Shown here in pieces: positions 6,928 through 38,904 of a stretch of DNA of 41,433 bases (position 1 is its first letter; the number at the start of each line of letters is the position of its first letter). Made by a program: the position numbers and the translations under genes. Source of the stretch: Candidatus Thorarchaeota archaeon (GTDB lineage: Archaea > Asgardarchaeota > Hermodarchaeia > Hermodarchaeales > Hermodarchaeaceae); the NCBI GenBank assembly GCA_048882025.1, contig JBHLSA010000002.1:1-41433 (forward strand). The letters are read 5' to 3'. The notes beneath the pieces were generated by a model. That model did no database searches. It saw only the letters and a list, made by a program, of their open reading frames with translations, and was not told the DNA's origin.

Positions 6928-7299
6928 TTACATGAATCCTCCAATATTCGCTGATGCCTTAGCAACTTCAACGTAAGCACCTTGAACATCGCCTTGAGGA
7001 GACACATATGCAATTACGTACCCCTTATCCCGTGCGGCAGTGATAACTATTGAACCTTGGCCTCGAACATTTGTTGCGACTAGATGATGATCAGTAACCT
7101 GAATCGTGCTGTACTTGACTCCTTGAATTGTAATGCTGGGTGGTTTGTTTTGGATTGCGTTTAGAATATCAGCCCCAGTTATTGCCCAATTAGGAGTAGT
7201 GAACAGAACGGTTCCGTCTTTTCGGATAACCGAAACAGCCATGATTGTATTATCGACCTGCTGCATGTAGTTGACCCAGGCTTGGATATTATCAGACAT
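6928..7299 (-). CDS. Profilin-like protein (eukaryotic signature protein)
   Basis: 123 aa from the ATG at 7299. MSDNIQAWVNYMQQ.. (N-terminal W/Y), ..SITIQGVKYSTIQV.., ..GQGSIVITAARDKGYVIAYVSPQGD.. and a C-terminal helix ..YVEVAKASANIGGFM follow the profilin fold layout. Confidence 0.75.
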   Translation of the reverse strand: MSDNIQAWVNYMQQVDNTIMAVSVIRKDGTVLFTTPNWAITGADILNAIQNKPPSITIQGVKYSTIQVTDHHLVATNVRGQGSIVITAARDKGYVIAYVSPQGDVQGAYVEVAKASANIGGFM

Positions 7300-7386
7300 T
7301 TTCCGCCAACACCCATTCACTGCCAGATTCAAATGGTGCATAAGACATTTTTGATATCGCTTACTAAAAGCTTCTGGCAGATTAAA

Positions 7387-7668
7387 ATGATTGAGCCGCA
7401 CAATAAGGGAACCTTACTAAGTGTTCGTGTTAGACCTCGTTCAAAAAAACAAGCAATAATTTTGAATGAGGAAAATGAGTGTTATGTACATGTGAAGAGT
7501 GCCCCGCTACGTGGTCAAGCTAATTTGGAATTATTGAAACTATTTGCTAAAGTTCTCAAAGTTCCAACCGAACGAATCCATATTATTTCCGGTGAAAAAT
7601 CGCAAAATAAAACGCTCCTTATCGAAGCAGTAAAACCAAATATTGTACGTGCCGCTTTGAAAAAATGA
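7387..7668 (+). CDS. DUF167 / YggU (UPF0235) family protein
   Basis: LSVRVRPRSKKQAI..VHVKSAPLRGQANLELLKLFAKVLKVPTERIHIISGEKSQNKTLLIE is the conserved family pattern. I used the internal ATG at 7387 because the track start at 7282 would overlap the divergent profilin start. Confidence 0.8.
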   Translation: MIEPHNKGTLLSVRVRPRSKKQAIILNEENECYVHVKSAPLRGQANLELLKLFAKVLKVPTERIHIISGEKSQNKTLLIEAVKPNIVRAALKK

Positions 7669-17654: not shown

Positions 17655-18302
17655 CTATCGTTTTCCAAGCATTTTTTGAAGCGAACTTATACCCGTTAGC
17701 AAACGTCGGTTCTCGATTGCTGTATTGAGGTCCGCACGAGTTCTTTCAACTAGACCTCTTGCCACATCGGTTTTTCTTCTAACCCCAGGAGTCAAACCCT
17801 GTGGAAAATCAAAGGTCATTAGCACCGTGTAAATCGATTCCATCTGAGTGAACGCGCGTTTAGCTTCGTCTAAATTATCGTTTGTTAAAGAATCTAGAGC
17901 ATATCTCCGGAGTTCACCAACAAAGTCACCTAACCCCTGTAGATATCCAATATCGCTTATTCCGAATTCTTGAGGGGGTGGTGATTCCTGTTTTTCCAGA
18001 AAAGCCAGAAAAAGGCCAGCTTCTGCTAATTCCCCCTCCGCGTTATTTACTAGCCCTAATACAGGAAGTTGATTTAGTTTCTTTTGATGCTTTTGGGTAT
18101 CCTGTAACATGGATTGAGCATTTTTGATAGATGTTCGAGCTCTACTCATATCACCACGATGTATTGCAGAAATTGCCTCACGAGTTATTCTTAGCACTTT
18201 ATTCATTTCATCGATAAGATGGTCCCGTGATTTATTTTGGACCGCTAGTTTTTCATAGATTTGGTTCCCGATTTCTTGAATGCTCATAATCGAAGGCTCC
18301 AT
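17655..18302 (-). CDS. Translin/TRAX family protein
   Basis: YLQGLGDFVGELRRYALD and a helical repeat layout typical of the translin family. It lies 8 nt upstream of nfi on the same strand. Confidence 0.7.
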   Translation of the reverse strand: MEPSIMSIQEIGNQIYEKLAVQNKSRDHLIDEMNKVLRITREAISAIHRGDMSRARTSIKNAQSMLQDTQKHQKKLNQLPVLGLVNNAEGELAEAGLFLAFLEKQESPPPQEFGISDIGYLQGLGDFVGELRRYALDSLTNDNLDEAKRAFTQMESIYTVLMTFDFPQGLTPGVRRKTDVARGLVERTRADLNTAIENRRLLTGISSLQKMLGKR

Positions 18303-20025: not shown

Positions 20026-21063
20026 TTGAACCCATTTACAAAGCTAAAATATGTGTTAACCAGCAAGGAGCTTCTTGATGTAGCCTTTGCTCGTGCTTCA
20101 AAGATAACACTACCCAAATCGAAAAAGCCACCTCATATCCGTGCCCGTACTAAAGAGATTGCGAAGTTAAAGAAAGTCGAAGATAATCTCACTACACGAC
20201 TTGAAGACATAGTTCAGCGCTTTCCGAACTTTGATGAAATTCATCCTTTCTATCGTTCTCTTGCAGATACCGTTGTGACAATAGATGAGATTCGGCAGGC
20301 TCTTGCCTCAGTTTCGTCCGCAATTCGTATTATTAAGGAAATCATTCGTGAGAGCACTAGGAAGCTAAAGCGTGTAAAAACCCCAGATGAAGCAAGAAGG
20401 CTAAGAGCCGCTGCCTATGGACGCATCTCTTCTGTAATTAATCGATTAGAGCCACGTCTGGTTATTATCCAGCGAGCTGCAAATGAATACCGCCGTTTTC
20501 CATCAATCAATCTTAACTTACCAGTAATTGTTGTTGCAGGATATCCCAACGTAGGAAAGAGTTCACTTGTTGCGCTTATTTCGTCTGCTACTCCTGAAGT
20601 TGCTGAATACCCCTTCACAACAAAAAAAATTAGTGTAGGTCATATTCCAATCAATTCTTTTGAGGGACAGATTCTCGATGTTCCTGGCCTCCTTGATCGG
20701 CCAATGAAAAAGAGGAATCCAATTGAGCAAAGGGCCATTGCAGCAATTCAATACTTAGCAGATGTTATTTGTTTCTTAGTAGATCCAACTCTAAACTGTG
20801 GGTATGAGCTGAATAGCCAAGTTTCCTTACTTCACGAAATTACTTCAACATTTCCAGACTTGGAGATTTTTCCTATCTTGAATAAAGGTGACATTGCAAC
20901 AAAGGGAGAAATTACCACAGCATTGGACATAATAAATCTAGGAAACATTCCAAAAATTAGTACTCTAACTGAAGAGGGGGTTGAACAGGTGTTTCATGAC
21001 ATTATATCACATTCTAAGATGATTCAGAAGAAGCTGAAGAACCTTCATGCCCAATCCCTTTGA
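20026..21063 (+). CDS. NOG1-family GTPase
   Basis: NOG1 N-domain pattern (FPNFDEIHPFYRSLADT), G1 GYPNVGKSS, G2 YPFTT, G3 DVPGL. TTG start. Confidence 0.8.
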   Translation: MNPFTKLKYVLTSKELLDVAFARASKITLPKSKKPPHIRARTKEIAKLKKVEDNLTTRLEDIVQRFPNFDEIHPFYRSLADTVVTIDEIRQALASVSSAIRIIKEIIRESTRKLKRVKTPDEARRLRAAAYGRISSVINRLEPRLVIIQRAANEYRRFPSINLNLPVIVVAGYPNVGKSSLVALISSATPEVAEYPFTTKKISVGHIPINSFEGQILDVPGLLDRPMKKRNPIEQRAIAAIQYLADVICFLVDPTLNCGYELNSQVSLLHEITSTFPDLEIFPILNKGDIATKGEITTALDIINLGNIPKISTLTEEGVEQVFHDIISHSKMIQKKLKNLHAQSL

Positions 21064-25576: not shown

Positions 25577-26965
25577 GTGATTCAAGTTACTTTATTAGCA
25601 ATATCCGGACTTCTCGTAGCCTTTATTGTAACATTCATTGTGATGCCATATGTTATTAAAACGATGAAGAACCGAAAAATTACTGGTATTGATGTACACA
25701 AGCTGAATAAACCTGAAGTCGCCGAAATGGGTGGGATTGGAATCCTTTTTGGTGTAACCGCAGGCTGTTTAGTATTATTTATCGGAACCGGTCTTGTATA
25801 TCCCGGTCTCTTTGATTTCCGAATCATTATATTCCTTATAGTAATTCTTTTCGCTGGGCTTATTGGAGCTATTGATGATATCAAGACTCTTGGACCTAAA
25901 ATCAAACCTTTATTGACAGCACTGGCTTGCCTTCCAATTCTTGCTTATACGTGGATGATTAGCCTTTCAGTAATACCTCCGATCTTCATACCTGCATATA
26001 ACCCAGGTCCTTATCTACCATTCTTAGGTCAAACCCGACTGACAATTGTATACCCCCTTGTATTGATTCCATTGGGAATAGCAATAACTGCTAACTCTGT
26101 CAATATGATGGATGTCTTTAATGGCGTAATGCCGATAACTTCGGTAATTATGTTCGTGGCACTTCTTTTCGTCTCAGTGTTGATGTGGTTCATTGGAGTT
26201 TCTGAGGCTGGATTAGGCATTCTTTTCTCATGTGTAATGATTGGCACACTTCTTGCTTACTATTATTTCAATCGAAATCCGGCGAAAGTCTTTGCAGGTG
26301 ACACAGGATCCCTTCTAGTTGGAGCTGCTTTAGGTGCAATTGCTATAATGGGTCGGGTTGAAATTGTAGCTATTGTGGCGCTGTTACCAGCAATCATGAA
26401 TGCCTTCTATTGTCTAATTAGCAGTGGCGGTTTGTTAGAACGACGACAAATGAGAGAGAGACCTACAATTTTTCAAGAGGATGGACGTCTTGCAGCTTCA
26501 CGTGAGCCAACAGCGCCTCTTACTTTGAGTCGATTGGTATTAGCCAGAGGTCCCCTATCGGAACAACATATAATTTTGTCATTAGCAACCTTAACGTTAG
26601 CCAGCAGTCTTCTAGCAGTACTAACTGTATTTCTCATTCCCTTCGATGGTGGTTACCTGTTAATTTGGCCCTTTTCAATGAGCCTTGTCATTATCCCCTT
26701 TATTCTCATTCTTGGGGTGTATTTGATATTAAGAAAAATAGATCAACTCGGTTTGCGACTAGCGGGATTGATTTCTATAATGGTAGGAGTCTGGGCTCTT
26801 GGGATGGCTGGTTTTTGGCTTCTAGATTATTTGATATTTATTTTTCAGAACCCTTGGTGGCCTATAGCAGGAATTCTCTTTATTTTTGGATGGTTAGTCT
26901 TGTGGCACTTCTCAACGCGATTATATTTCCGTTCTGAAATCGGTAAAGCCAAGACTGTTACTTAG
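25577..26965 (+). CDS. aglH: UDP-GlcNAc:dolichyl-phosphate GlcNAc-1-phosphate transferase (AglH/ALG7, MraY-like GT4 family) with a C-terminal multi-TM extension
   Basis: IGAIDDIKTLG, NSVNMMDVFNG and FAGDTGSLLVG motifs. About 130 extra C-terminal residues contain further TM helices. GTG start. Confidence 0.85.
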   Translation: MIQVTLLAISGLLVAFIVTFIVMPYVIKTMKNRKITGIDVHKLNKPEVAEMGGIGILFGVTAGCLVLFIGTGLVYPGLFDFRIIIFLIVILFAGLIGAIDDIKTLGPKIKPLLTALACLPILAYTWMISLSVIPPIFIPAYNPGPYLPFLGQTRLTIVYPLVLIPLGIAITANSVNMMDVFNGVMPITSVIMFVALLFVSVLMWFIGVSEAGLGILFSCVMIGTLLAYYYFNRNPAKVFAGDTGSLLVGAALGAIAIMGRVEIVAIVALLPAIMNAFYCLISSGGLLERRQMRERPTIFQEDGRLAASREPTAPLTLSRLVLARGPLSEQHIILSLATLTLASSLLAVLTVFLIPFDGGYLLIWPFSMSLVIIPFILILGVYLILRKIDQLGLRLAGLISIMVGVWALGMAGFWLLDYLIFIFQNPWWPIAGILFIFGWLVLWHFSTRLYFRSEIGKAKTVT

Positions 26966-27788
26966 TCCGTTTCCTCACTGTAGCATGCTGCCAACGATAT
27001 TCAAAGCTTTGCTGAAAAATGGCAACAATACCTTCATTAGCTGAATAGCTTGGGCGATAAACGTACCGTGGTTGACTTTTTTCTCTCTTTGGAGACGCCC
27101 AGATGAGAAACACAACTCTTGAAGAATCAGCAAGCGTGCCTCTTACAGGAAACCGTAAATCAGCAGGTTGTTTCACACTAGCTCCTAATTTTCGAAGCTT
27201 CTGAACTGCAGTTCGTGTTGCTTCATGTTGCATATTCATAAGGACTCTTATCTTCACTCCTCTTTCGATGGCCTTAGCTAGATCATGTTGAACTGCATCA
27301 AACCAGCTGAAGATGTCAGTGAATATGTCAAGAGTCTTTCTGGCTTCAGAAATCAGGAGTTTAGTTTGTTTTTCAGTTATCGCTAAATTTTCCAAAGATT
27401 CCAAGAGATCCTCTGGTCGTATTCGAAGACGCTGACGCCAAAAAATTGGTGACAGAACTTCTTTAACTTCTAGACTTGTATCTTCCAATTGCTTAATCGA
27501 GTCTGCAATTGCACGTTTTCGTATTGTTATTAGTTTTCGAAGACCCTCATCAGGGCTAATTATTTCAAATTTTTTCGGACGGCCTTCAATAATGACAATA
27601 AGCCCAAGAGCTTTTAGACTTTCAAGGACTCCGTAAACTCGTGGAATGGGAATATTGGCTTTCCGAGCTACCTCCTCCGCACTCATTTGTGAGCCTTGCA
27701 CGAGAATAAGATAAGCTTGGGTTTCGTATTCGGTTAGGCCTAGTTGTCGGATTTTTTCAGCAGCTTCTTTCATTGTAAGGTTTCCCAT
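26958..27788 (-). CDS. TrmB-family transcriptional regulator
   Basis: LGLTEYETQAYLILVQGSQMSAEEVARKANIPIPRVYGVLESLKALGLI wHTH, plus a TrmB-type C-terminal domain. Confidence 0.8.
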   Translation of the reverse strand: MGNLTMKEAAEKIRQLGLTEYETQAYLILVQGSQMSAEEVARKANIPIPRVYGVLESLKALGLIVIIEGRPKKFEIISPDEGLRKLITIRKRAIADSIKQLEDTSLEVKEVLSPIFWRQRLRIRPEDLLESLENLAITEKQTKLLISEARKTLDIFTDIFSWFDAVQHDLAKAIERGVKIRVLMNMQHEATRTAVQKLRKLGASVKQPADLRFPVRGTLADSSRVVFLIWASPKREKSQPRYVYRPSYSANEGIVAIFQQSFEYRWQHATVRKRTK

Positions 27789-27895: not shown

Positions 27896-28858
27896 ATGAA
27901 ACCCATAGGAGTTGGCGTTATTGGAATTGGGGCATGGGGAAAGAACCATATTCGCATCTTCTCCGAGCTGGAGGAGACTACGCTTGTCGCCATAGCCGAG
28001 CGGGATACCGAGCGAGGTAAAGCTTTTTCCAAAAAATATGACACCATTCATTATGCTAGTGCTGATGAATTATTCCGTCGGAACGACATTGATGCCGTAA
28101 CCATCTGCACACCAACAGTAACGCATGCCGATTTAGCATTGCAAGCGATTGAAGCTGGTAAACACCTACTTTTAGAGAAGCCTATGACGGAAACACTGCA
28201 GCAAGCCCAACGAGTAATTGATGCAGCAAAATCTGCAAAGGTGAGCGTGATGGTGGGCTTCGTTGAGCGATTCAATCCGTCAGTCGAAACCGCCACCCAA
28301 TTGATTGACCAAGGACAAGTAGGTGAACTGGTTTTAGGTTCTGCAAGACGTTTAGGTCCATTTGTACCAGGACGAGTGGCAGATATTGGAATAATAAAAG
28401 ATTTGGCTATTCATGATATCGATATTGCACGTTTTCTAGTTAAACAGGAAGCAACTTCGGTTTATGCTATTGCAGGTAGTCTTTATCATAAATATGAAGA
28501 TCATGCTAATCTGGTAATCCGTTTTGATGATAAGCCTACGTTTTTTCTTGAATGTAATTGGCTAACCCCACGAAAACTCCGAGGCCTTAGCATTACAGGC
28601 TCTGAAGGTGTTCTATCATTGGATTACATATCACAAGAGGTATCCTTAGGAACTAAACAGTGGGAGCAAAAATCCACGTCAACATGGGATGAGCCCTTGA
28701 AACGAGAACTTTCACATTTTGCCAAGTGCATAATAGACCACCAATTACCACTAACATCAGGAAATGACGGATTAGAAGCACTGCGAATTGCTGAGGCCGC
28801 ACTAGAAAGCGCCAAAAGTAAACGCATAATCCATCTTGAGGAGCTTCGTTCAAATTGA
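27896..28858 (+). CDS. Gfo/Idh/MocA-family NAD-dependent sugar-nucleotide oxidoreductase (WbpB-like)
   Basis: IGVGVIGIGAWGKNH Rossmann motif and EKPM motif. Its stop overlaps the start of the next gene (TTGA). Confidence 0.85.
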   Translation: MKPIGVGVIGIGAWGKNHIRIFSELEETTLVAIAERDTERGKAFSKKYDTIHYASADELFRRNDIDAVTICTPTVTHADLALQAIEAGKHLLLEKPMTETLQQAQRVIDAAKSAKVSVMVGFVERFNPSVETATQLIDQGQVGELVLGSARRLGPFVPGRVADIGIIKDLAIHDIDIARFLVKQEATSVYAIAGSLYHKYEDHANLVIRFDDKPTFFLECNWLTPRKLRGLSITGSEGVLSLDYISQEVSLGTKQWEQKSTSTWDEPLKRELSHFAKCIIDHQLPLTSGNDGLEALRIAEAALESAKSKRIIHLEELRSN

Positions 28859-29628
28859 ATGTAAAAGAAAAAGTTCATCCAAGCGCAGTAATAGAAAAAG
28901 AAGTAAAGTTGGCACCAGATTACACAGTAGAGCCTTATGTGTTCTTAAGAGGAAAGATCCAAGCTGGAAAACGATGCTATTTTAGCACGGGATGTAAAAT
29001 ACAAGGTCCTGCAAATATTGGTAACAATGTATTTTTTGGTGAACAAACCACAATAGGTTTCCCAACTCAACATCAAATCGAGCAATACCAAAAAGAAAAG
29101 AAAGCGTCACCATGGATGAATTCTGAATTAACAGAGATAGGAGATGACTGTATTATACGTGCAGGATCGGTTCTCTATTCAAGTTCAAAATTAGGGAATA
29201 ACGTCAGGATAGGTCACAATGTATTGCTACGCGAAAATGTCCAAATTGGAGACAATTCCCTAGTGGGAACGAGCGTCACTATTGATGGCAATTCATCAAT
29301 TGGAAAGAAAGTATCAATTCAGACAAACGTTTACATTCCCTGGAATACTATTATTGAAGACCACGTCTTTCTTGGTCCTCATTGTGTCCTTACAAATGAC
29401 AAATATGTCATGCGAACTCATTTTGAACTTAAAGGCCCAATCATTCGGAGAGGAGTTAGCATCGGAGCTGGAGCTGTAATATTACCAGCAATTGAGATTG
29501 GTGAGAAAGCAGTTATTGGAGCTGGAGCTGTTGTTACCAAAAATGTTCCTCCAAAAACAATTGTTCATGGTGTTCCAGCTCGGGTACAATCTGTTATTCC
29601 AGAAAACTGGAAGATACCGTTAGAATAG
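28855..29628 (+). CDS. Hexapeptide-repeat (left-handed beta-helix) acetyltransferase (WbpD-like)
   Basis: Repeated [LIV]-G-x4 hexapeptides (IGDNSLVGTSVTIDGNSSIGKKVSIQ.., VSIGAGAVILPAIEIGEKAVIGAGAVV). TTG start. Confidence 0.8.
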   Translation: MNVKEKVHPSAVIEKEVKLAPDYTVEPYVFLRGKIQAGKRCYFSTGCKIQGPANIGNNVFFGEQTTIGFPTQHQIEQYQKEKKASPWMNSELTEIGDDCIIRAGSVLYSSSKLGNNVRIGHNVLLRENVQIGDNSLVGTSVTIDGNSSIGKKVSIQTNVYIPWNTIIEDHVFLGPHCVLTNDKYVMRTHFELKGPIIRRGVSIGAGAVILPAIEIGEKAVIGAGAVVTKNVPPKTIVHGVPARVQSVIPENWKIPLE

Positions 29629-29770
29629 GTGATACCAGAACCCAAATATGGATATACCTTGAAATCTAAACGGAGAATGTCGGTTAGAATATTGAGTTTG
29701 CTAGTTTTCATTGTAAATAAGAGAATGCTTATATACGTGAAAATAATCGACAAATCGAAATCCGGTATCG

Positions 29771-31504
29771 GTGAGTGACAGCGTGAAAACCAGAGCTTTA
29801 CTACTACTTGTGCTAATATGCTTACCATTGGCCTTTGTATTCATCCCGCCTACAAGTGCAGATTCTTCGCAATTGGTAATTGATGAAGCCCAGCGCGATG
29901 TTGAACTTCAAATTTATGGAATGATCCTTGTAACTGATACTATTACAATTAGTAATCTAGGGCCTGTACCGGCTTTCAATATTATGGCTGCTTATCCATT
30001 AGCTGAAATAAAAAATGTTAAAGAATTTACAGCAGCGACAATTAATGGAACTAGCCTCTACCACCAAAGGATCGCGCGCATTGGTCCAAATTGCACTGGA
30101 TGGCAAGTCTTCCTAGCCGAGCCCTTAATGCCAGAACAAACTGTAACATTTACAGTTCAGATGGCTATTGAGGGACTAGTCACAATAGACGAAACAACAG
30201 CAACGGCAAGCATACCAATAATCGTTACAAGCCCATACAACATTACTAGTTACTCAACTAGATTGACTTACCATGATGCGCTAACAGCACCAACGCAAAC
30301 TAGCTGGACTGGAGATTCAGTTCACCCCTACAGTTTTGAGCTCCGGGCAGTTATCTTAGACCACATCACTGATGATTTTGCACCAATTATTTCGTATTTA
30401 GAGCTTAAGCGAACCTTCTATATTGATGCGTGGGGCTATTTGTTTGCTCAAGAAGCACATATGTTTCGCCTTGAAAGCGTTAACCCAAGATTTACAAATT
30501 CAGAACGGCGCTGGAATTCACTCACTGTCACTTTACCAGCAGGAAGTGAATTTCTTCGAGTCTTTGATAACATTGCCAACTTATCAAATAGCCGAATAGA
30601 AACACCCACCAATGTAACTCACCCAGGGTCGATTGCGGTTCAATTACGATATCATCTCGAAGAAGGAGATGTATACCAGTTTTTCCTTGAATACCGAATT
30701 CCCTTAGACCTTCGACAACTCGTATTACAAACAGGTCAAGCCTTATTTTTTGAACCCTATTATAAAGAGCCGTGGATAATCCGAAACCAAATTACTGAAT
30801 TTATTCTTCCATCAGGGAGCTGGTTACAAGGAGTACCTATTGACGCAGAAACAACCTCAACGCCCACAGGACAGTATTTGATTAGCTTCTCAGCTCAAAA
30901 CGTGACCTCACTTCATCAGTCCAATCTAAGTCTTTTCTATGTTTACCCTGTTCTTCCTGCTCTAGCCCGACCGATGCTTTTCTTCGTAGTTATTGGGGCA
31001 GCCTGTCTAGTGTATATAACAGCTCGACGAGTTTCCTTCTTCCGTGAAGAAGAGGAAATTATTGCACCCACAATAGAAATAGATCCGATTATTCTGGACG
31101 AATTCTGTACTTTCTATGGAGAGAAAATTGCGCTATTATTGCAAACAGAAAAACTAGAACAGACTATGCTGCAGGGTAAGATATCGAAACCCAGATATCG
31201 AAAAGAGAAGAAGAACTTCGAGCGAAAAATTCGTGCAATTGACCGAGAACTCAGCACTCGTAGCCAACCTCTTATCGAGGCTGGAGGCAAATATGAATCA
31301 GCCGTTCGACAACTAGAGCTACTCGAGGCAGAACGCGTTAGTTCAATTGAAGCACTACACGCCCTTGAACAGCGATACCGCCAGAAACGAATTACAGCTC
31401 AAGTTTACCAAAAGCTACAAAAAGATCTTCAAAAACGGCGAGATAAAGCAGTTGGACGAATGGACCGTATCTTACTTAGTTTACGCGAAGAACTAGCATT
31501 ATAA
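29771..31504 (+). CDS. Ribophorin I / OST1-like type I membrane protein with a long helical cytosolic tail
   Basis: Signal peptide, a roughly 365-aa ectodomain with seven N-x-S/T sequons, a single TM (PMLFFVVIGAACLVYITA) and a roughly 155-aa charged helical tail. Blocks QRDVELQIYGMILVTDTITISNLG, KRTFYIDAWGYLFAQEAHMF, LPAGSEFLRVFDNIANLSNS and VQLRYHLEEGDVYQFFLEYRIPL parallel ribophorin I blocks as I recall them (KRTVDL.., [57 protein letters not shown]). Confidence 0.6.
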   Translation: MSDSVKTRALLLLVLICLPLAFVFIPPTSADSSQLVIDEAQRDVELQIYGMILVTDTITISNLGPVPAFNIMAAYPLAEIKNVKEFTAATINGTSLYHQRIARIGPNCTGWQVFLAEPLMPEQTVTFTVQMAIEGLVTIDETTATASIPIIVTSPYNITSYSTRLTYHDALTAPTQTSWTGDSVHPYSFELRAVILDHITDDFAPIISYLELKRTFYIDAWGYLFAQEAHMFRLESVNPRFTNSERRWNSLTVTLPAGSEFLRVFDNIANLSNSRIETPTNVTHPGSIAVQLRYHLEEGDVYQFFLEYRIPLDLRQLVLQTGQALFFEPYYKEPWIIRNQITEFILPSGSWLQGVPIDAETTSTPTGQYLISFSAQNVTSLHQSNLSLFYVYPVLPALARPMLFFVVIGAACLVYITARRVSFFREEEEIIAPTIEIDPIILDEFCTFYGEKIALLLQTEKLEQTMLQGKISKPRYRKEKKNFERKIRAIDRELSTRSQPLIEAGGKYESAVRQLELLEAERVSSIEALHALEQRYRQKRITAQVYQKLQKDLQKRRDKAVGRMDRILLSLREELAL

Positions 31505-31566: not shown

Positions 31567-31688
31567 AGCCCGGTAGTGTAGCCTTGGTTACAGAGGCAAA
31601 GTGGTCAATCATTCGGGGCTTTGGAGCTGCAACATTTCAACAGCGGAGTTACCCCGAGACCGCGGTTCGAATCCGCGCCGGGCTACCA
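31567..31688 (+). tRNA. tRNA-Gln(UUG) with two introns (D-loop and anticodon loop 37/38); CCA encoded
   Basis: AGCCCGG-TA-GTGT-AGCC[TTGGTTACAGAGGCAAAG]TGGTCAA-TCAT-T-CGGGG-CTTTGG[AGCTGCAACATTTCAACAGCGGAGTT]A-CCCCG-AGAC-CGCGG-TTCGAAT-CCGCG-CCGGGCT-A-CCA. The D-arm without the insert is one base different from the tRNA-Glu D-arm at 36493-36511. Confidence 0.7.
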
Positions 31689-31690
31689 CT

Positions 31691-32530
31691 TCATTTTCCC
31701 TTAACTGTTAAATTTGGATACCAACTCTTAGCTTTAGCTTCACTGGCTTGTTTATCCCAGTCAGCAAGAATCTTAGCTGCTTCACACGCGGTGTGGCTTG
31801 CTTCTTTTTCGCCGAGTGTAGCAAATTCCTCAGTTTCCCGATTTGCGAAAACAGTGCATACCGCACCACTTCTTAAGCCAAATAGATTTGCCAAGGTAAA
31901 TATCGTCGAGCATTCCATCTCAAAATTCAATACACGAGCAGCTTTCAAATCCGATATGATATTATCCATAGAGGATTGCCAAAAGCCATTGTACCCAGGG
32001 CGTCCCTGTCCAGTGTAAAAACTGTCAGTACTACACGTTATTCCAATATGATAACGATAGCCTAAACTTTCTGCTGCTTCTATGAGCGCAAGTACAACTT
32101 GATAATGCGCGAAAGCAGGATACGTGGAAGACACGTATTGTTTACTAGTACCATCATTTCGAACGGCGCCAGTTGTAATAATTAGATCACCACACTTGAT
32201 GTCTTTATGAATAGCTCCAGAACTCCCTACACGAATCAACGTTCTTGCTCCAATTGTGGCGAGCTCTTCGATAGCAATCGCTGTTGCTGGACATCCAATT
32301 CCTGTTGATGTTGTGCTGATTGGTGTGTTTTTGTAGACACCCGTATAGGTAACATAAGTTCTTTTTTCAGCCATTTGCTGAGCTGTGTCCCATAATTTAG
32401 AAATTAGGGTAGCGCGTGCAGGATCGCCGGGTAACAATACTGTTGGCGCAATATCATCTGGTTTTATTCCGATATGATACTGAATCTTATTCGCTGTTTC
32501 AGGTCTGCTTGCGGATTCCCATTTTTTCAT
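31691..32530 (-). CDS. udp: Uridine phosphorylase (PNP/UDP family 1)
   Basis: LLPGDPARA, STGIGCPATAIAIEEL, IRVGSSGAI and NFEMECSTIF closely parallel bacterial Udp. The ATG at 32530 (MKKWES) is preferred over the track start at 32545. Confidence 0.85.
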   Translation of the reverse strand: MKKWESASRPETANKIQYHIGIKPDDIAPTVLLPGDPARATLISKLWDTAQQMAEKRTYVTYTGVYKNTPISTTSTGIGCPATAIAIEELATIGARTLIRVGSSGAIHKDIKCGDLIITTGAVRNDGTSKQYVSSTYPAFAHYQVVLALIEAAESLGYRYHIGITCSTDSFYTGQGRPGYNGFWQSSMDNIISDLKAARVLNFEMECSTIFTLANLFGLRSGAVCTVFANRETEEFATLGEKEASHTACEAAKILADWDKQASEAKAKSWYPNLTVKGK

Positions 32531-32556: not shown

Positions 32557-33162
32557 TTAGCGGGTTCCCCGTCTGTAACTCGGTCGAACTTTTCGAGTAG
32601 TCTTCTCTTCCCGTTCTTCAATTTCTCCTTTTTCAATGAGATAATCTAGGGCTTTATCCAGTTCTGAACGACTTATTTGGAGCGAGTTGGCAACTTCACC
32701 TCGTGAATAACCCTCCGCATACAATTCAACAATTTTAGTAAGGATTAGTTTACCGAAATAGACATGTTTACCTTGTGAGATGATAAGTAATCCTGGGAGT
32801 TTTGTCATTTTAGATTTAGCCATACGATTTAATTCAAATTCAATTTTTGCAGGAGTTTCTTCGAGATTCTGGGCTAATTCAATTAACGTAATTCGTTCAG
32901 CAGTTGCTAATTCGGTTCTTAGGTTTTGGATGAAAGTTCTACGACGATAAAATAGTATGGTCCCAATAAATGATATCATGACTACCATGAAGATCATCAG
33001 AAACCAGCTCAGAAGCGGGTTAACATTGAATAACATCGTAACTGTGGTAATGAAGGCAGTGGTGTTTATTGCTTGAAAAAGAAAAAAATCAATAAGAAAT
33101 AATACTAGGGCTATTGCAAGTATAGTAGCTAATATTTTGACAAGAGCAGATTGAAGTGACAT
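32557..33162 (-). CDS. Membrane-anchored protein with two cytoplasmic HTH-like segments, function unknown
   Basis: Two N-terminal TM helices, then ITLIELAQNLEETPAKIEFELNRM and GYSRGEVANSLQISRSELDKALDYLIEKGEI. Confidence 0.5.
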   Translation of the reverse strand: MSLQSALVKILATILAIALVLFLIDFFLFQAINTTAFITTVTMLFNVNPLLSWFLMIFMVVMISFIGTILFYRRRTFIQNLRTELATAERITLIELAQNLEETPAKIEFELNRMAKSKMTKLPGLLIISQGKHVYFGKLILTKIVELYAEGYSRGEVANSLQISRSELDKALDYLIEKGEIEEREEKTTRKVRPSYRRGTR

Positions 33163-33191: not shown

Positions 33192-33965
33192 TTAGCCTAT
33201 GTAACTTGCACTTTCTGTTTCGTCTCTCGGTTCTCTTTGTTCACGTTGTTGTAAGAGATGATGTTTCACTTGAGCGTAAATTCCTTTCATTTCTTCGATT
33301 CTTTGTTCCAATTCTGATACATCAGCGTTAATGTCAAATCGGTCGTTCAGAACTTTGACAATCAATTTTGATGCCCGAGGATCTTGCCTAAGTAAAGGAA
33401 CGGTTTCGGCTAGAAGACAAACACCCTCGATACCGTATTTTAGATTCGCCCATGCAGGGATTACACCATTTGCCCCATTTATGACTCCATCAGACATTGG
33501 TATGACGTAATCTAACTCTGTGAAGAAAGCTTGGAATTTTGGCCCAGTTGAGGAAACGAAAACCTTTGGTGTTTCAGGGAACTCACCTGGAACATAGGCA
33601 CCTGTCGCTGCAATCTTCTTGACATTCATTTTTTTGAAGGTCTCTGCGATTCGATCAGAAAACTCATAAATTCCTTGTGATGATGATGGTTGAAAATCCC
33701 CTGAAACTAATATGATATCATGTTTCAGCTTAGGATTTTTATGAAGGTAAATTTGGCATTCAGGGATTTTCATCATCCCCTTATCATCAATCATCACATG
33801 GGGAGGAAAATCATCTGAAAGAACTTGGATTATTGGTTCTGCCTTTAGATTTTTAATTAAAACCTCGATTGCTAATTTTCCAACACTAGCAATACCTGGC
33901 ATACCTACTAGGGCAATTGGGTTTCGAATTTCTTTTACTTCTTTTAACCAAATAATCTCAATCAT
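33192..33965 (-). CDS. PAC2-family proteasome assembly chaperone
   Basis: NPIALVGMPGIASVGKLAIEVLI.., ..ILVSGDFQP.. and the PAC2/DUF75 layout. Confidence 0.8.
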   Translation of the reverse strand: MIEIIWLKEVKEIRNPIALVGMPGIASVGKLAIEVLIKNLKAEPIIQVLSDDFPPHVMIDDKGMMKIPECQIYLHKNPKLKHDIILVSGDFQPSSSQGIYEFSDRIAETFKKMNVKKIAATGAYVPGEFPETPKVFVSSTGPKFQAFFTELDYVIPMSDGVINGANGVIPAWANLKYGIEGVCLLAETVPLLRQDPRASKLIVKVLNDRFDINADVSELEQRIEEMKGIYAQVKHHLLQQREQREPRDETESASYIG

Positions 33966-34058: not shown

Positions 34059-35066
34059 TTAATTAGTTATTCCTGAGGAATAAGCCGTTATAAAGTCAAT
34101 ACGTTGGCGAACCATTTTTTGTAGAGAACGCTTGATTTTTTCTTGGTCTAAAGGTAATATTTGAAAGAAATCGTCGCGATGATGGTCAATAGTTCTTCGT
34201 AATGTTTCTGGTACAACAATGATTACATTGTGTTTATCTGCATATTCACGAGCTAAAATTTTCAGTTGTTCTTTTTCACCATCGAAGAAGTATAGGACAA
34301 GATGAAGGTCAGAAAGAAAAAATACATGATTCGACGCTTCTCTATACTGAAGAGAAAGCTCATCTAAAATACCTTTGATAATATGTTTAAAATACGTCTC
34401 TAAAGCTTTGCTTCGCTCAAAGAAATATAACGTCTCAGACCCACATCTTTCACACTGAATACCAATCCGCTTCGAAAGCTCTTTGACACTTTCAGAAGGG
34501 ATATTCAAGTACCTAGTGAGGTATCGTTGAGTCCAATACGTTTTGATCGCATTTCTAAGATGCAAATAGAGATTGTCATGTTTTTCACTTCGAGATGATG
34601 GAGGTTCTTGCGATTTTTGAGCCTCCTTGGAGTTTAGCGTTTGAAGAAGAGGTAGTGACCTTCGATCGTTGCTGGGTTTTGACCAATTTTCTAGTGAATC
34701 GAGAAACCATGATAGATTAGTTTCTGTTAACTCGTGAACTGAGATCGAATTTGCCGCATTTGGAATGTCAATTCCCTCTGCTTTTAACTCGGACACGACT
34801 TGTAAGACTTTATTTTTGAGTTCTGCAGCTTCTCTGATGAAAAATTTCATTCGAGCTTTGAGTGGCGTTCGTATTTCTAATATCCATCGAAGTGTTTCAA
34901 TATCAATGTGGGCTAAAGGAAACAGAACTAATTCTTGTGATTCAGTAATGTAAACTTCAGTCAGCTTACACCCTAAGGCATCTTCAGATAAAACAAAATC
35001 AATGCAACGATTTTTTAAGCTGCCGAGAAAAGCGCCAATGTATTCTTGGATTGATGAAGGACACAT
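34059..35066 (-). CDS. Hypothetical two-domain protein (335 aa)
   Basis: Long ORF with an ATG start. N- and C-terminal alpha/beta-looking domains are separated by a Ser/Pro/Gln-rich linker (..KEAQKSQEPPSSRSEKHD..). It has a single CERCG element and no family I can name. Confidence 0.55.
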   Translation of the reverse strand: MCPSSIQEYIGAFLGSLKNRCIDFVLSEDALGCKLTEVYITESQELVLFPLAHIDIETLRWILEIRTPLKARMKFFIREAAELKNKVLQVVSELKAEGIDIPNAANSISVHELTETNLSWFLDSLENWSKPSNDRRSLPLLQTLNSKEAQKSQEPPSSRSEKHDNLYLHLRNAIKTYWTQRYLTRYLNIPSESVKELSKRIGIQCERCGSETLYFFERSKALETYFKHIIKGILDELSLQYREASNHVFFLSDLHLVLYFFDGEKEQLKILAREYADKHNVIIVVPETLRRTIDHHRDDFFQILPLDQEKIKRSLQKMVRQRIDFITAYSSGITN

Positions 35067-36122: not shown

Positions 36123-36332
36123 CTAAGCTATGATAACATCTTCATCCTGACGAAGAATCATTAAGCGTGTTACATATCCAGCAATTCTGTTTCGCAAACG
36201 TTTAGTAGTATTTGTAAGTAGCTCGTCTAAAATCTCTTTATTTTGAGCAAAATCTGTTGTAAAACTATCTGAATATCGTTCAACAAGTTCTCTTGAAAGG
36301 CGTTTGATTAGGACCGTTCTAACTTTACCCAC
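36123..36332 (-). CDS. rps17e: 30S ribosomal protein eS17
   Basis: MGKVRTVLIKRLSRELVERY..FTTDF..NK..L...TKRLRNRIAGYVTRL. GTG start preceded by GGAGG. Confidence 0.9.
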   Translation of the reverse strand: MGKVRTVLIKRLSRELVERYSDSFTTDFAQNKEILDELLTNTTKRLRNRIAGYVTRLMILRQDEDVIIA

Positions 36333-38454: not shown

Positions 38455-38904
38455 TTAGCTAGGAGTTTCCTCTGCTTTGGTTTTTTGTTCTTCGATGAAG
38501 CGAGTGTATATTTTTCTTATGCGATCAGCAAGTGGACCTGTCCCTTCTACCCCTTCTTCGGTTAAACGAACCTTGTTTAGCACAACAATGACACGTGCGT
38601 CTTCAAGGAATCTGACCTCTCCAGGAGGAAAGAGTGTTTCGAGTTGTTCAGCCAGCCCCTTCAAGTCAAATGGATCTTCGGTCTTGACGAGTTCTAATAT
38701 CGTATGGCCCGTAACCACAATCTTGTGGTAGACCGTGCCTTTTGAGTCACGCGCATCAGACAATACAACACTTAACGTAGCAGGATCATAACCTCGCATT
38801 TTTCCAGTGAGAGATTTTCCTGTATTTGTACTAATAACCACAGTTGCTCCAATCAAAGAGGCTAGTTCTTTGAAAAAATGTCGAGCCCCAGTACTTTGTG
38901 CCAT
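38455..38904 (-). CDS. Sm-like (LSm) protein with a C-terminal extension domain (SmAP3-type architecture)
   Basis: Sm1 is LIGATVVISTNTGKSLTGKMRGYDPATLSVVLSDA and Sm2 is YHKIVVTGHTILEL, followed by a roughly 75-aa extra domain. The ATG is preceded by GAGGAAA. Confidence 0.7.
   Translation of the reverse strand: MAQSTGARHFFKELASLIGATVVISTNTGKSLTGKMRGYDPATLSVVLSDARDSKGTVYHKIVVTGHTILELVKTEDPFDLKGLAEQLETLFPPGEVRFLEDARVIVVLNKVRLTEEGVEGTGPLADRIRKIYTRFIEEQKTKAEETPS

Follow-up and report, generated by a model that had tools for sequence, protein, structure and literature searches.

A Thorarchaeial OST1/ribophorin I orthologue with a predicted RPN1-type four-helix bundle in its cytosolic tail

The window analyzed here, a stretch of 41,433 nucleotides from contig JBHLSA010000002.1 of a Candidatus Thorarchaeota archaeon (within the Asgard kingdom Promethearchaeati), contains a gene for the Thorarchaeial orthologue of OST1/ribophorin I (RPN1), the large non-catalytic subunit of the eukaryote-type oligosaccharyltransferase (OST). 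The open reading frame (ORF) lies at 29771..31504 on the forward strand and encodes 577 amino acids (aa), with a GTG start and a TAA stop at 31502-31504; the NCBI entry for the same gene starts at the in-frame GTG at 29783 and lists a 573-aa "hypothetical protein" (locus tag ACFFD8_00445). Our overall explanation, to which we assign a probability of roughly 0.8, is that the protein is an OST1 orthologue equipped with a ribosome-docking cytosolic bundle.

Membership in the OST1/ribophorin I family is established because sequence, profile, and fold agree. Pfam Ribophorin_I (PF04597), the family put forward in an earlier sequence-only reading of this DNA, matched at 38.6 bits, above its gathering cutoff of 25 (E = 9.5e-10), with residues 245-417 aligned to positions 254-435 of the 437 in the profile. 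The same family was matched by 58 of 75 diverse relatives scanned, and no NCBIfam family matched the 577-aa protein. A Thor-family profile (A1), built from 36 close relatives and searched against PDB sequences with HMMER, recovered 8WHN (9.2e-23), human RPN1 (3.6e-12), and yeast Ost1 (1.2e-6). The human alignment was collinear from the second half of the ectodomain through the transmembrane (TM) helix to residue 604 of 607; the yeast alignment covered ectodomain and TM helix only and stopped at the latter. Four ribophorin I ectodomain blocks had been named from the sequence, and all are present (at residues 41, 58, 213, 265 and 290) and aligned by HMMER to the same RPN1/Ost1 blocks: lkRqfsidaWGyllvlE, ydslanlsss, and evklqykleegdvYqffleYRipL fall on their RPN1/Ost1 counterparts, and the N-terminal qRnv..itvvN aligns with yeast KRTIDV..ITIKN. 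The full-length AlphaFold2 (AF2) model was confident (predicted local distance difference test, pLDDT, 87.1), with low confidence solely in a linker at residues 424-433. When this model was compared with the PDB in Foldseek, each of the eight best matches was an RPN1 or Ost1 chain of a human or yeast OST structure (1.5e-30 to 6e-19). TMt reached 0.67 among the tail-less chains. These matches uphold the ectodomain fold expected at first reading.

The features of the gene and its product, all on the forward strand, are as follows.

29729..29735, forward strand: TTATATA, a TATA-box-like element 35 nt upstream of the GTG (sequence only)
29771..29860, forward strand: predicted Sec signal peptide, residues 1-30 (K6/R8, hydrophobic core at residues 9-27, cleavage-type site T-S-A/D, the slash marking the cut)
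29861..30949, forward strand: predicted extracellular beta-sandwich ectodomain, residues 31-393 (Pfam, profile alignments, Foldseek, sequons)
30950..31030, forward strand: predicted single TM helix, residues 394-420 in the AF2 model, then RR..R (hydropathy, AF2, alignment with the RPN1 and Ost1 TM helices)
31031..31084, forward strand: acidic low-confidence linker, residues 421-438, FREEEEIIAPTIEIDP (pLDDT <50 at residues 424-433)
31085..31501, forward strand: predicted cytosolic four-helix bundle of RPN1 type, residues 439-577, 139 aa (AF2, Foldseek, phmmer, diverse tail profile)
31175..31204, forward strand: turn motif 1, G-K-I-S-K-P-R-Y-R-K, residues 469-478, at the junction of tail helices H1 and H2 (conservation in 149 tails)
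31382..31414, forward strand: turn motif 2, Q-K-R-I-T-A-Q-V-Y-Q-K, residues 538-548, at the junction of tail helices H3 and H4 (conservation in 149 tails, alignments)

This layout confirms, as a prediction from hydropathy and the AF2 model, the type I topology ascribed to the protein from its sequence, with a signal peptide, a large ectodomain, one TM helix near the C-terminal part, and a helical tail. There are two hydrophobic segments (hydropathy peaks at residues 3-31 and 393-424) and no others. The first corresponds to an N-terminal helix at residues 3-23 in the AF2 model, with a dip in pLDDT at residues 21-30, and the signal peptide would be cleaved at the T-S-A/D site; the second holds the TM helix, which had been estimated at residues ~395-418 and is 394-420 in the AF2 model. 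The RR..R that follows it conforms to the positive-inside pattern, and all seven N-x-S/T sequons (7/7) lie in the ectodomain, N-terminal of the TM helix. The ectodomain is acidic, with a net charge of -17. Residues 421-577 contain 20% K+R and 17% D+E, for a net charge of +4, which becomes +7 over residues 436-577. The TTATATA element may be the gene's own archaeal promoter. Downstream, a 144-aa ORF at 31584-32018 on the forward strand was judged spurious, having no family and overlapping the PNP gene on the opposite strand.

We also observed a second class of structural neighbors for the ectodomain. After the OST1/RPN1 chains, Foldseek matched the full-length model to the N-terminal beta domain of M1 aminopeptidases (LTA4H, IRAP, ERAP, and APN; E ~2e-7, ~215 residues, 3.6-5 Å), the corresponding part of the model being the N-terminal beta domain of the ectodomain (~29861-30400). 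Judged from the model, the aminopeptidase domain is possibly a distant fold relative of the OST1 ectodomain.

The cytosolic tail is modeled as a compact four-helix bundle and not as a generic extended coiled coil. In the tail-only AF2 model (pLDDT 90.4, predicted TM score 0.79) the helices span residues 439-467 (H1), 473-504 (H2), 507-537 (H3), and 543-576 (H4), which gives substance to the long helical tail that had been read from the sequence. Foldseek superposed this model on 8WHN with a root-mean-square deviation (rmsd) of 1.4 Å over 140 columns (TM 0.83/0.92, E = 5.2e-6), the sole PDB match at E<=1e-3. A phmmer search of PDB sequences with the whole protein likewise gave one strong match, of residues 423-573 to 8WHN, described as "Ribophorin 1 superfamily protein", at 4.7e-15.

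Carilo, Senju, Yokoyama, and Robinson crystallized the cytoplasmic OST1 domain of MK-D1 (Candidatus Prometheoarchaeum syntrophicum, WP_147663064.1), a Lokiarchaeon available in culture, and 8WHN is the structure they obtained (2024, J Biol Chem; PMC11417166; preprint 10.1101/2023.10.04.560972). The sequence-only reading had supposed that such a tail had not been analyzed, a belief that is out of date: an Asgard OST1 tail has been crystallized and has been shown to pull down ribosomes (PMC11417166). The MK-D1 tail has the same four-helix topology as the human RPN1 tail, with somewhat different helix angles; His-tagged MK-D1 and human tails pull down human ribosomes and the MK-D1 ectodomain does not, from which the authors concluded that Asgard OST1 recruits ribosomes to the translocon (PMC11417166). 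On the AF2 model, the tail of the window protein is shown to be equivalent to this solved domain. The two proteins share a signal peptide, ectodomain, one TM helix, and a basic cytosolic four-helix bundle, and differ in lineage and length (Lokiarchaeia, 607 aa, versus Thorarchaeia, 577 aa), with a tail identity of ~28%.

Comparison with the eukaryotic proteins places the window protein with the metazoan RPN1 type and not with the yeast type, because yeast Ost1p lacks the cytosolic bundle. Human RPN1 (6S7O chain E, 8B6L chain O) is of the same family (Foldseek 1.5e-30) and topology and has a four-helix tail after the TM helix, a G-K-[IL]-x-K-x-x-Y turn, and a C-terminal D-x-I-L. Its overall identity to the window protein is just 14-16%, and it resides in the endoplasmic reticulum (ER), in the STT3A complex with DC2/KCP2; for the archaeal protein a location in the plasma membrane is presumed. 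Yeast Ost1p (6EZN, 6C26) shares the homologous ectodomain and TM helix (Foldseek ~1e-20, TMt 0.67) and the N-terminal K-R-T-[IV]-D block, but ends soon after the TM helix. The mammalian bundle touches eL28 and rRNA H25 and H19/20 of the 60S subunit and is one of two links that join STT3A-OST to the ribosome-Sec61 complex, while in yeast, without the bundle, glycosylation is not directly coupled to translocation (PMC6761772). The contrast drawn at first reading between a ribosome-contacting mammalian tail and a tail-less yeast Ost1 was therefore correct.

Homology between the archaeal tail and the human RPN1 tail is real but faint at the level of sequence. A tail profile from 149 diverse sequences scored human RPN1 461-604 at 23.8 bits (E = 3.5e-4 at PDB size); none of 2000 shuffles reached that value (the best gave 13.6), and the reversed sequence gave 8.1. 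In this alignment the consensus r-r-g-k-i-s-k-e-a-Y...i-d-k-i-l is in register with human A-G-K-L-K-K-D-T-Y...I-D-H-I-L.

The tail was also found throughout the Asgard representatives that our distribution data cover. A scan of 1.84 billion cluster representatives with the A1 profile gave 741 clusters at E<=1e-3, 200 of them at E<=1e-30, and among the best 150 clusters nearly all aligned through the last profile positions. We combined 148 of these 150 with the window protein in a diverse alignment (A3, n = 149), in which all 149 members had at least 110 residues aligned to residues 436-577 of the window protein. Named lineages with the tail include Thorarchaeota, Lokiarchaeota (Harpocratesius), Odinarchaeia, Hodarchaeota, Borrarchaeum, and unclassified Promethearchaeota, and their named members were all annotated as "hypothetical protein". 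A second homologue search, with A3 and aimed at TACK and eukaryotic members, yielded the same Thor-family proteins and no others.

No other part of the protein is as conserved within the Thor family as the tail, whose mean column entropy is 0.60 bits (ectodomain 1.3-1.4, TM helix 1.27) and whose pairwise identity is 60-89% (ectodomain 39-71%). The best-kept positions across the 149 tails were F445, Y449, E451, K452, K470, Y476, E519, E521, R535, Y536, S/T542, Y546, L549, I/M564, D565, L571, and R572. Several of these lie in the two turns, where conservation was 72% for K470, 61% for I471, and 81% for Y476 in turn motif 1, and 77% for S/T542, 86% for Y546, and 81% for L549 in turn motif 2. The net charge of the tail had a median of +8 in the diverse set. 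The tail occurs in every diverse representative examined, is more conserved than the ectodomain, and is homologous to the human tail, and these results therefore suggest that it is functionally central in archaea and not incidental.

The earlier reading had noticed two K-I-(S/T)-x3-Y-x-K repeats in the tail. Both turns exist, with cores KISKPRYRK at residue 470 and RITAQVYQK at residue 540, and their tyrosines are conserved; the second reads R-I-T, not K-I-T, and turn motif 2 is aligned with human RPN1 A-G-K-L-K-K-D-T-Y-I-E. An L-E-x(5-6)-K-I-x(4)-Y-x-K turn is common to both tail hairpins (H1-H2 and H3-H4) and recurs across the family, and hhalign brought the turns of the two hairpins into register, weakly (P = 0.0064, probability 5.9%). 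Birth of the bundle by duplication of a helical hairpin carrying this turn is suggested by these data, not established. Other identities for the tail were rejected. SHOCT (PF09851), considered for the K-I-S/T-x3-Y turns, matched 1 of 75 members, below its cutoff. CdvA-like, GvpG, and coiled-coil Pfam matches in the tails were weak and were judged to be composition or helix artefacts. The CdvA-like coiled coil (PF18822) matched the tails of 7 of 75 members (best E = 3.5e-5), and Foldseek aligned the tail model with Sulfolobus islandicus CdvA at E 0.2-0.7 with an rmsd of ~20 Å; this is probably generic helical similarity.

Two variations in family architecture and copy number were observed. P0083 (975 aa) and P0131 (986 aa) keep the full tail and have a ~425-aa N-terminal extension before the OST1 ectodomain, in which we identified an FKBP-type peptidyl-prolyl isomerase domain (E = 2.2e-13 and 1e-7) and a bacterial Ig domain. 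As read from sequence, this fusion is a hint that unfolded chains are acted on by the ectodomain as they emerge. P0043 (ACFFCZ_28870) and P0045 (ACFFCZ_25050) are divergent OST1 homologues, both tailed, and come from one Promethearchaeota metagenome-assembled genome, since their locus-tag prefix is identical. The pair points to OST1 paralogues in some Asgard genomes.

By homology, the window protein most likely serves as the OST1 subunit of a Thorarchaeial OST at the plasma membrane, where its bundle would couple translocation and glycosylation. The Sec signal peptide would direct the protein to the cytoplasmic membrane, with two beta-sandwich domains outside the cell, one TM anchor, and a positively charged four-helix bundle of ~140 aa in the cytoplasm. 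Next to the SecYEG/Sec61 channel, the TM helix and ectodomain would form a complex with catalytic STT3/AglB and the small OST subunits of Asgard archaea, and the bundle would dock on the large ribosomal subunit, as its mammalian counterpart does. Docking would hold OST at the translocon exit, so that sequons could be glycosylated as the chain emerges. We infer both the complex with AglB and the docking on the native archaeal ribosome by analogy with the characterized proteins.

Several observations weigh against this interpretation. Experiments on an Asgard OST1 tail concern the MK-D1 Lokiarchaeon, the Thor protein being known from sequence and model alone, and the published pull-down used human, not archaeal, ribosomes, with the ectodomain as the negative control (PMC11417166). 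A Thor-only tail profile from 35 close relatives, which scored the MK-D1 tail at 73.4 bits, gave 2.1 bits on human RPN1 461-604, inside the range of 2000 shuffles (mean 0.95, 95th percentile 4.0 bits). The tail homology to human RPN1 is thus seen only with the diverse profile, and the likeness to the RPN1 C-terminal end that had been proposed from the sequence is right in its register and not significant when the Thor family is used by itself. Human RPN1 was absent from the best 50 PDB matches of the tail-only model in Foldseek, and the full-length Foldseek alignment to 8B6L_O spans 598 columns at a global rmsd of 13.8 Å, so that likeness to the human bundle by direct superposition would rest on the published comparison (PMC11417166). 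Generic four-helix bundles (Rex1BD, chemoreceptor ligand-binding domains, and designed proteins) matched the tail model at E ~0.5-2, and the bundle fold by itself is therefore not specific. Finally, STT3/AglB, OST3/6, WBP1, and other OST subunits were not found in the 41-kb window; STT3/AglB and OST3/6 are reported from Asgard genomes in the literature (PMC11417166, PMC10307638).

The alternative that survives best, which we nevertheless consider unlikely, accepts a true OST1 homologue and gives the bundle another native partner, the reported ribosome binding being electrostatic and non-physiological. Candidate partners would be self-association, the signal recognition particle receptor/FtsY, a cytoskeletal or ESCRT-like protein, or the membrane surface. 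The strongly basic tails (median +8 in the diverse set, +7 in the window protein) are in keeping with it, as is the design of the pull-down: non-specific rRNA binding by a basic domain is possible because the ribosomes were heterologous, the bait was basic, and the control was an ectodomain whose counterpart here is acidic (net -17). The weak CdvA-like matches of the tails would also speak for it, but they were not significant. Detectable sequence homology to the human tail argues against it, and so strong a conservation of the tail is what a slowly evolving partner, such as the ribosome, would lead one to expect.

In Thorarchaeia, OST1 lies in a conserved neighborhood of glycan-biosynthesis genes. 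Upstream of OST1, the window contains the following genes.

25577..26965, forward strand: polyprenyl-phosphate sugar-1-phosphate transferase (Glycos_transf_4; MraY/WecA/Alg7 superfamily; PF00953 1.1e-28, synteny)
26958-27788, reverse strand: TrmB-family regulator, divergent
27896..28858, forward strand: archaeal UDP-GlcNAc 3-dehydrogenase-like oxidoreductase (NF040723 4.4e-102, GFO_IDH_MocA, synteny)
28855..29628, forward strand: hexapeptide-repeat sugar N-acetyltransferase (NeuD/PglB/VioB type), directly upstream of OST1 (Hexapep 2.7e-33, TIGR03570 1.6e-31, synteny)

The dehydrogenase and acetyltransferase genes overlap, and OST1 lies on the same strand. The dehydrogenase scored 341.6 bits against NF040723, below the equivalog cutoff of 450 bits. 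Across the contigs compared (L001, L002, and the P0030 contig), the order Glycos_transf_4 - TrmB - dehydrogenase - acetyltransferase - OST1 - PNP persists where OST1 identity has fallen to 61% and 51%. Such a conserved glycan-precursor neighborhood fits a role of OST1 in protein glycosylation, and the gene content suggests that a diacetamido-sugar N-glycan pathway is linked to OST1 in Thorarchaeia.

This neighborhood bears on a second alternative, that the protein is independent of any OST complex. It could, for instance, chaperone or receive nascent secreted proteins outside the cell by itself, while AglB acts alone as in other archaea. Archaeal AglB is catalytically self-sufficient, the window holds no OST partner, and the N-terminal FKBP-type isomerase fused to the ectodomain in some members suggests a folding-related role. 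We judge this alternative less probable still than another binding partner. The ectodomain and TM helix are homologous to the segments packed onto the OST core of the solved yeast and human complexes, OST1 is syntenic with glycan-precursor genes, and a chaperone role on emerging chains would be compatible with OST membership. Moreover, Asgard genomes encode more OST subunit homologues, those of Ost3, Ost4, and Ost5 being reported from the majority of Asgard classes and those of WBP1/Ost2/Swp1 from Heimdallarchaeia only (Eme et al. 2023; PMC10307638).

Very improbable, finally, is the notion that the archaeal and metazoan tails are merely analogous, four-helix bundles having been added independently after the TM helix in the Asgard and eukaryotic lineages: the score of the Thor-only profile within the shuffle range, the tail-less yeast Ost1, and the commonness of four-helix bundles (the unrelated Rex1BD reaches TM 0.7-0.8) would suit it, but it has to contend with the 23.8 bits of the diverse profile and its shuffled and reversed controls, with the G-K-[IL]-x-K-x-x-Y turn and C-terminal [IM]-D-x-I-L at equivalent positions, and with the same place after a homologous TM helix and the same published helix topology (PMC11417166).

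The remainder of the window consists of housekeeping genes. Two syntenic ORFs without a clear family, at 34059-35066 and 32557-33162 on the reverse strand, are kept beside OST1 in L001, L002, and the P0030 contig. The 335-aa syntenic protein had no Pfam or NCBIfam match, and the 201-aa one has two to three N-terminal hydrophobic segments and a weak C-terminal winged helix-turn-helix (Lrs14/Sta1-like, E ~1.5e-5). Information-processing genes included a NOG1-type GTPase, an Lsm+Lsm_C protein, a PAC2 proteasome-assembly-chaperone-like protein, a Translin-like protein, and ribosomal protein S17e, the last named by its position in syntenic loci; their coordinates, listed jointly, are 20026-21063 (forward strand) and 38455-38904, 33192-33965, 17655-18302, and 36123-36332 (reverse strand). 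A 157-aa ORF at 6928-7401 on the reverse strand matched Pfam Profilin below threshold (E = 5.6e-5, 23.7 bits against a cutoff of 25) and, on this sequence match, probably encodes an Asgard profilin, which would be a further eukaryotic signature protein on the contig.

The identification of the OST1 gene is correct but not new, as the tail structure, the binding experiment, and the evolutionary inference are already published. Citations in two of the papers used here (PMC11417166, PMC10307638) trace reports of ribophorin I in Asgard archaea back to 2017. Our data on tail distribution, tail conservation, and the repeats go modestly beyond the 2024 paper, which treated one Lokiarchaeon; the faint human-tail homology, the conserved glycan-gene synteny, and the FKBP-fused variants are further additions, and they corroborate the published picture without changing it. 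The main value of the finding is annotation and corroboration, and the window supplies a well-supported Thorarchaeial member that public annotation still calls a "hypothetical protein".

Asgard ribophorin I is a eukaryotic signature protein that has been used to argue for an archaeal origin of the ER translocon-OST machinery. The proposal that its bundle is a universal part of Asgard OST1 and the most constrained one, and that it docks on native archaeal ribosomes at the cell's plasma membrane, we advance tentatively, at somewhat short of even odds. If it is true, N-glycosylation coupled co-translationally to the ribosome, as with mammalian STT3A, would have been complete before the ER and later lost, for example in budding yeast. 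That such coupling predates eukaryotes had also been drawn from the sequence of this gene; the inference is consistent with our results and was already in print (Carilo et al. 2024, PMC11417166). The idea that ribosome-OST coupling predates eukaryotes is thus strengthened by these results, not established.

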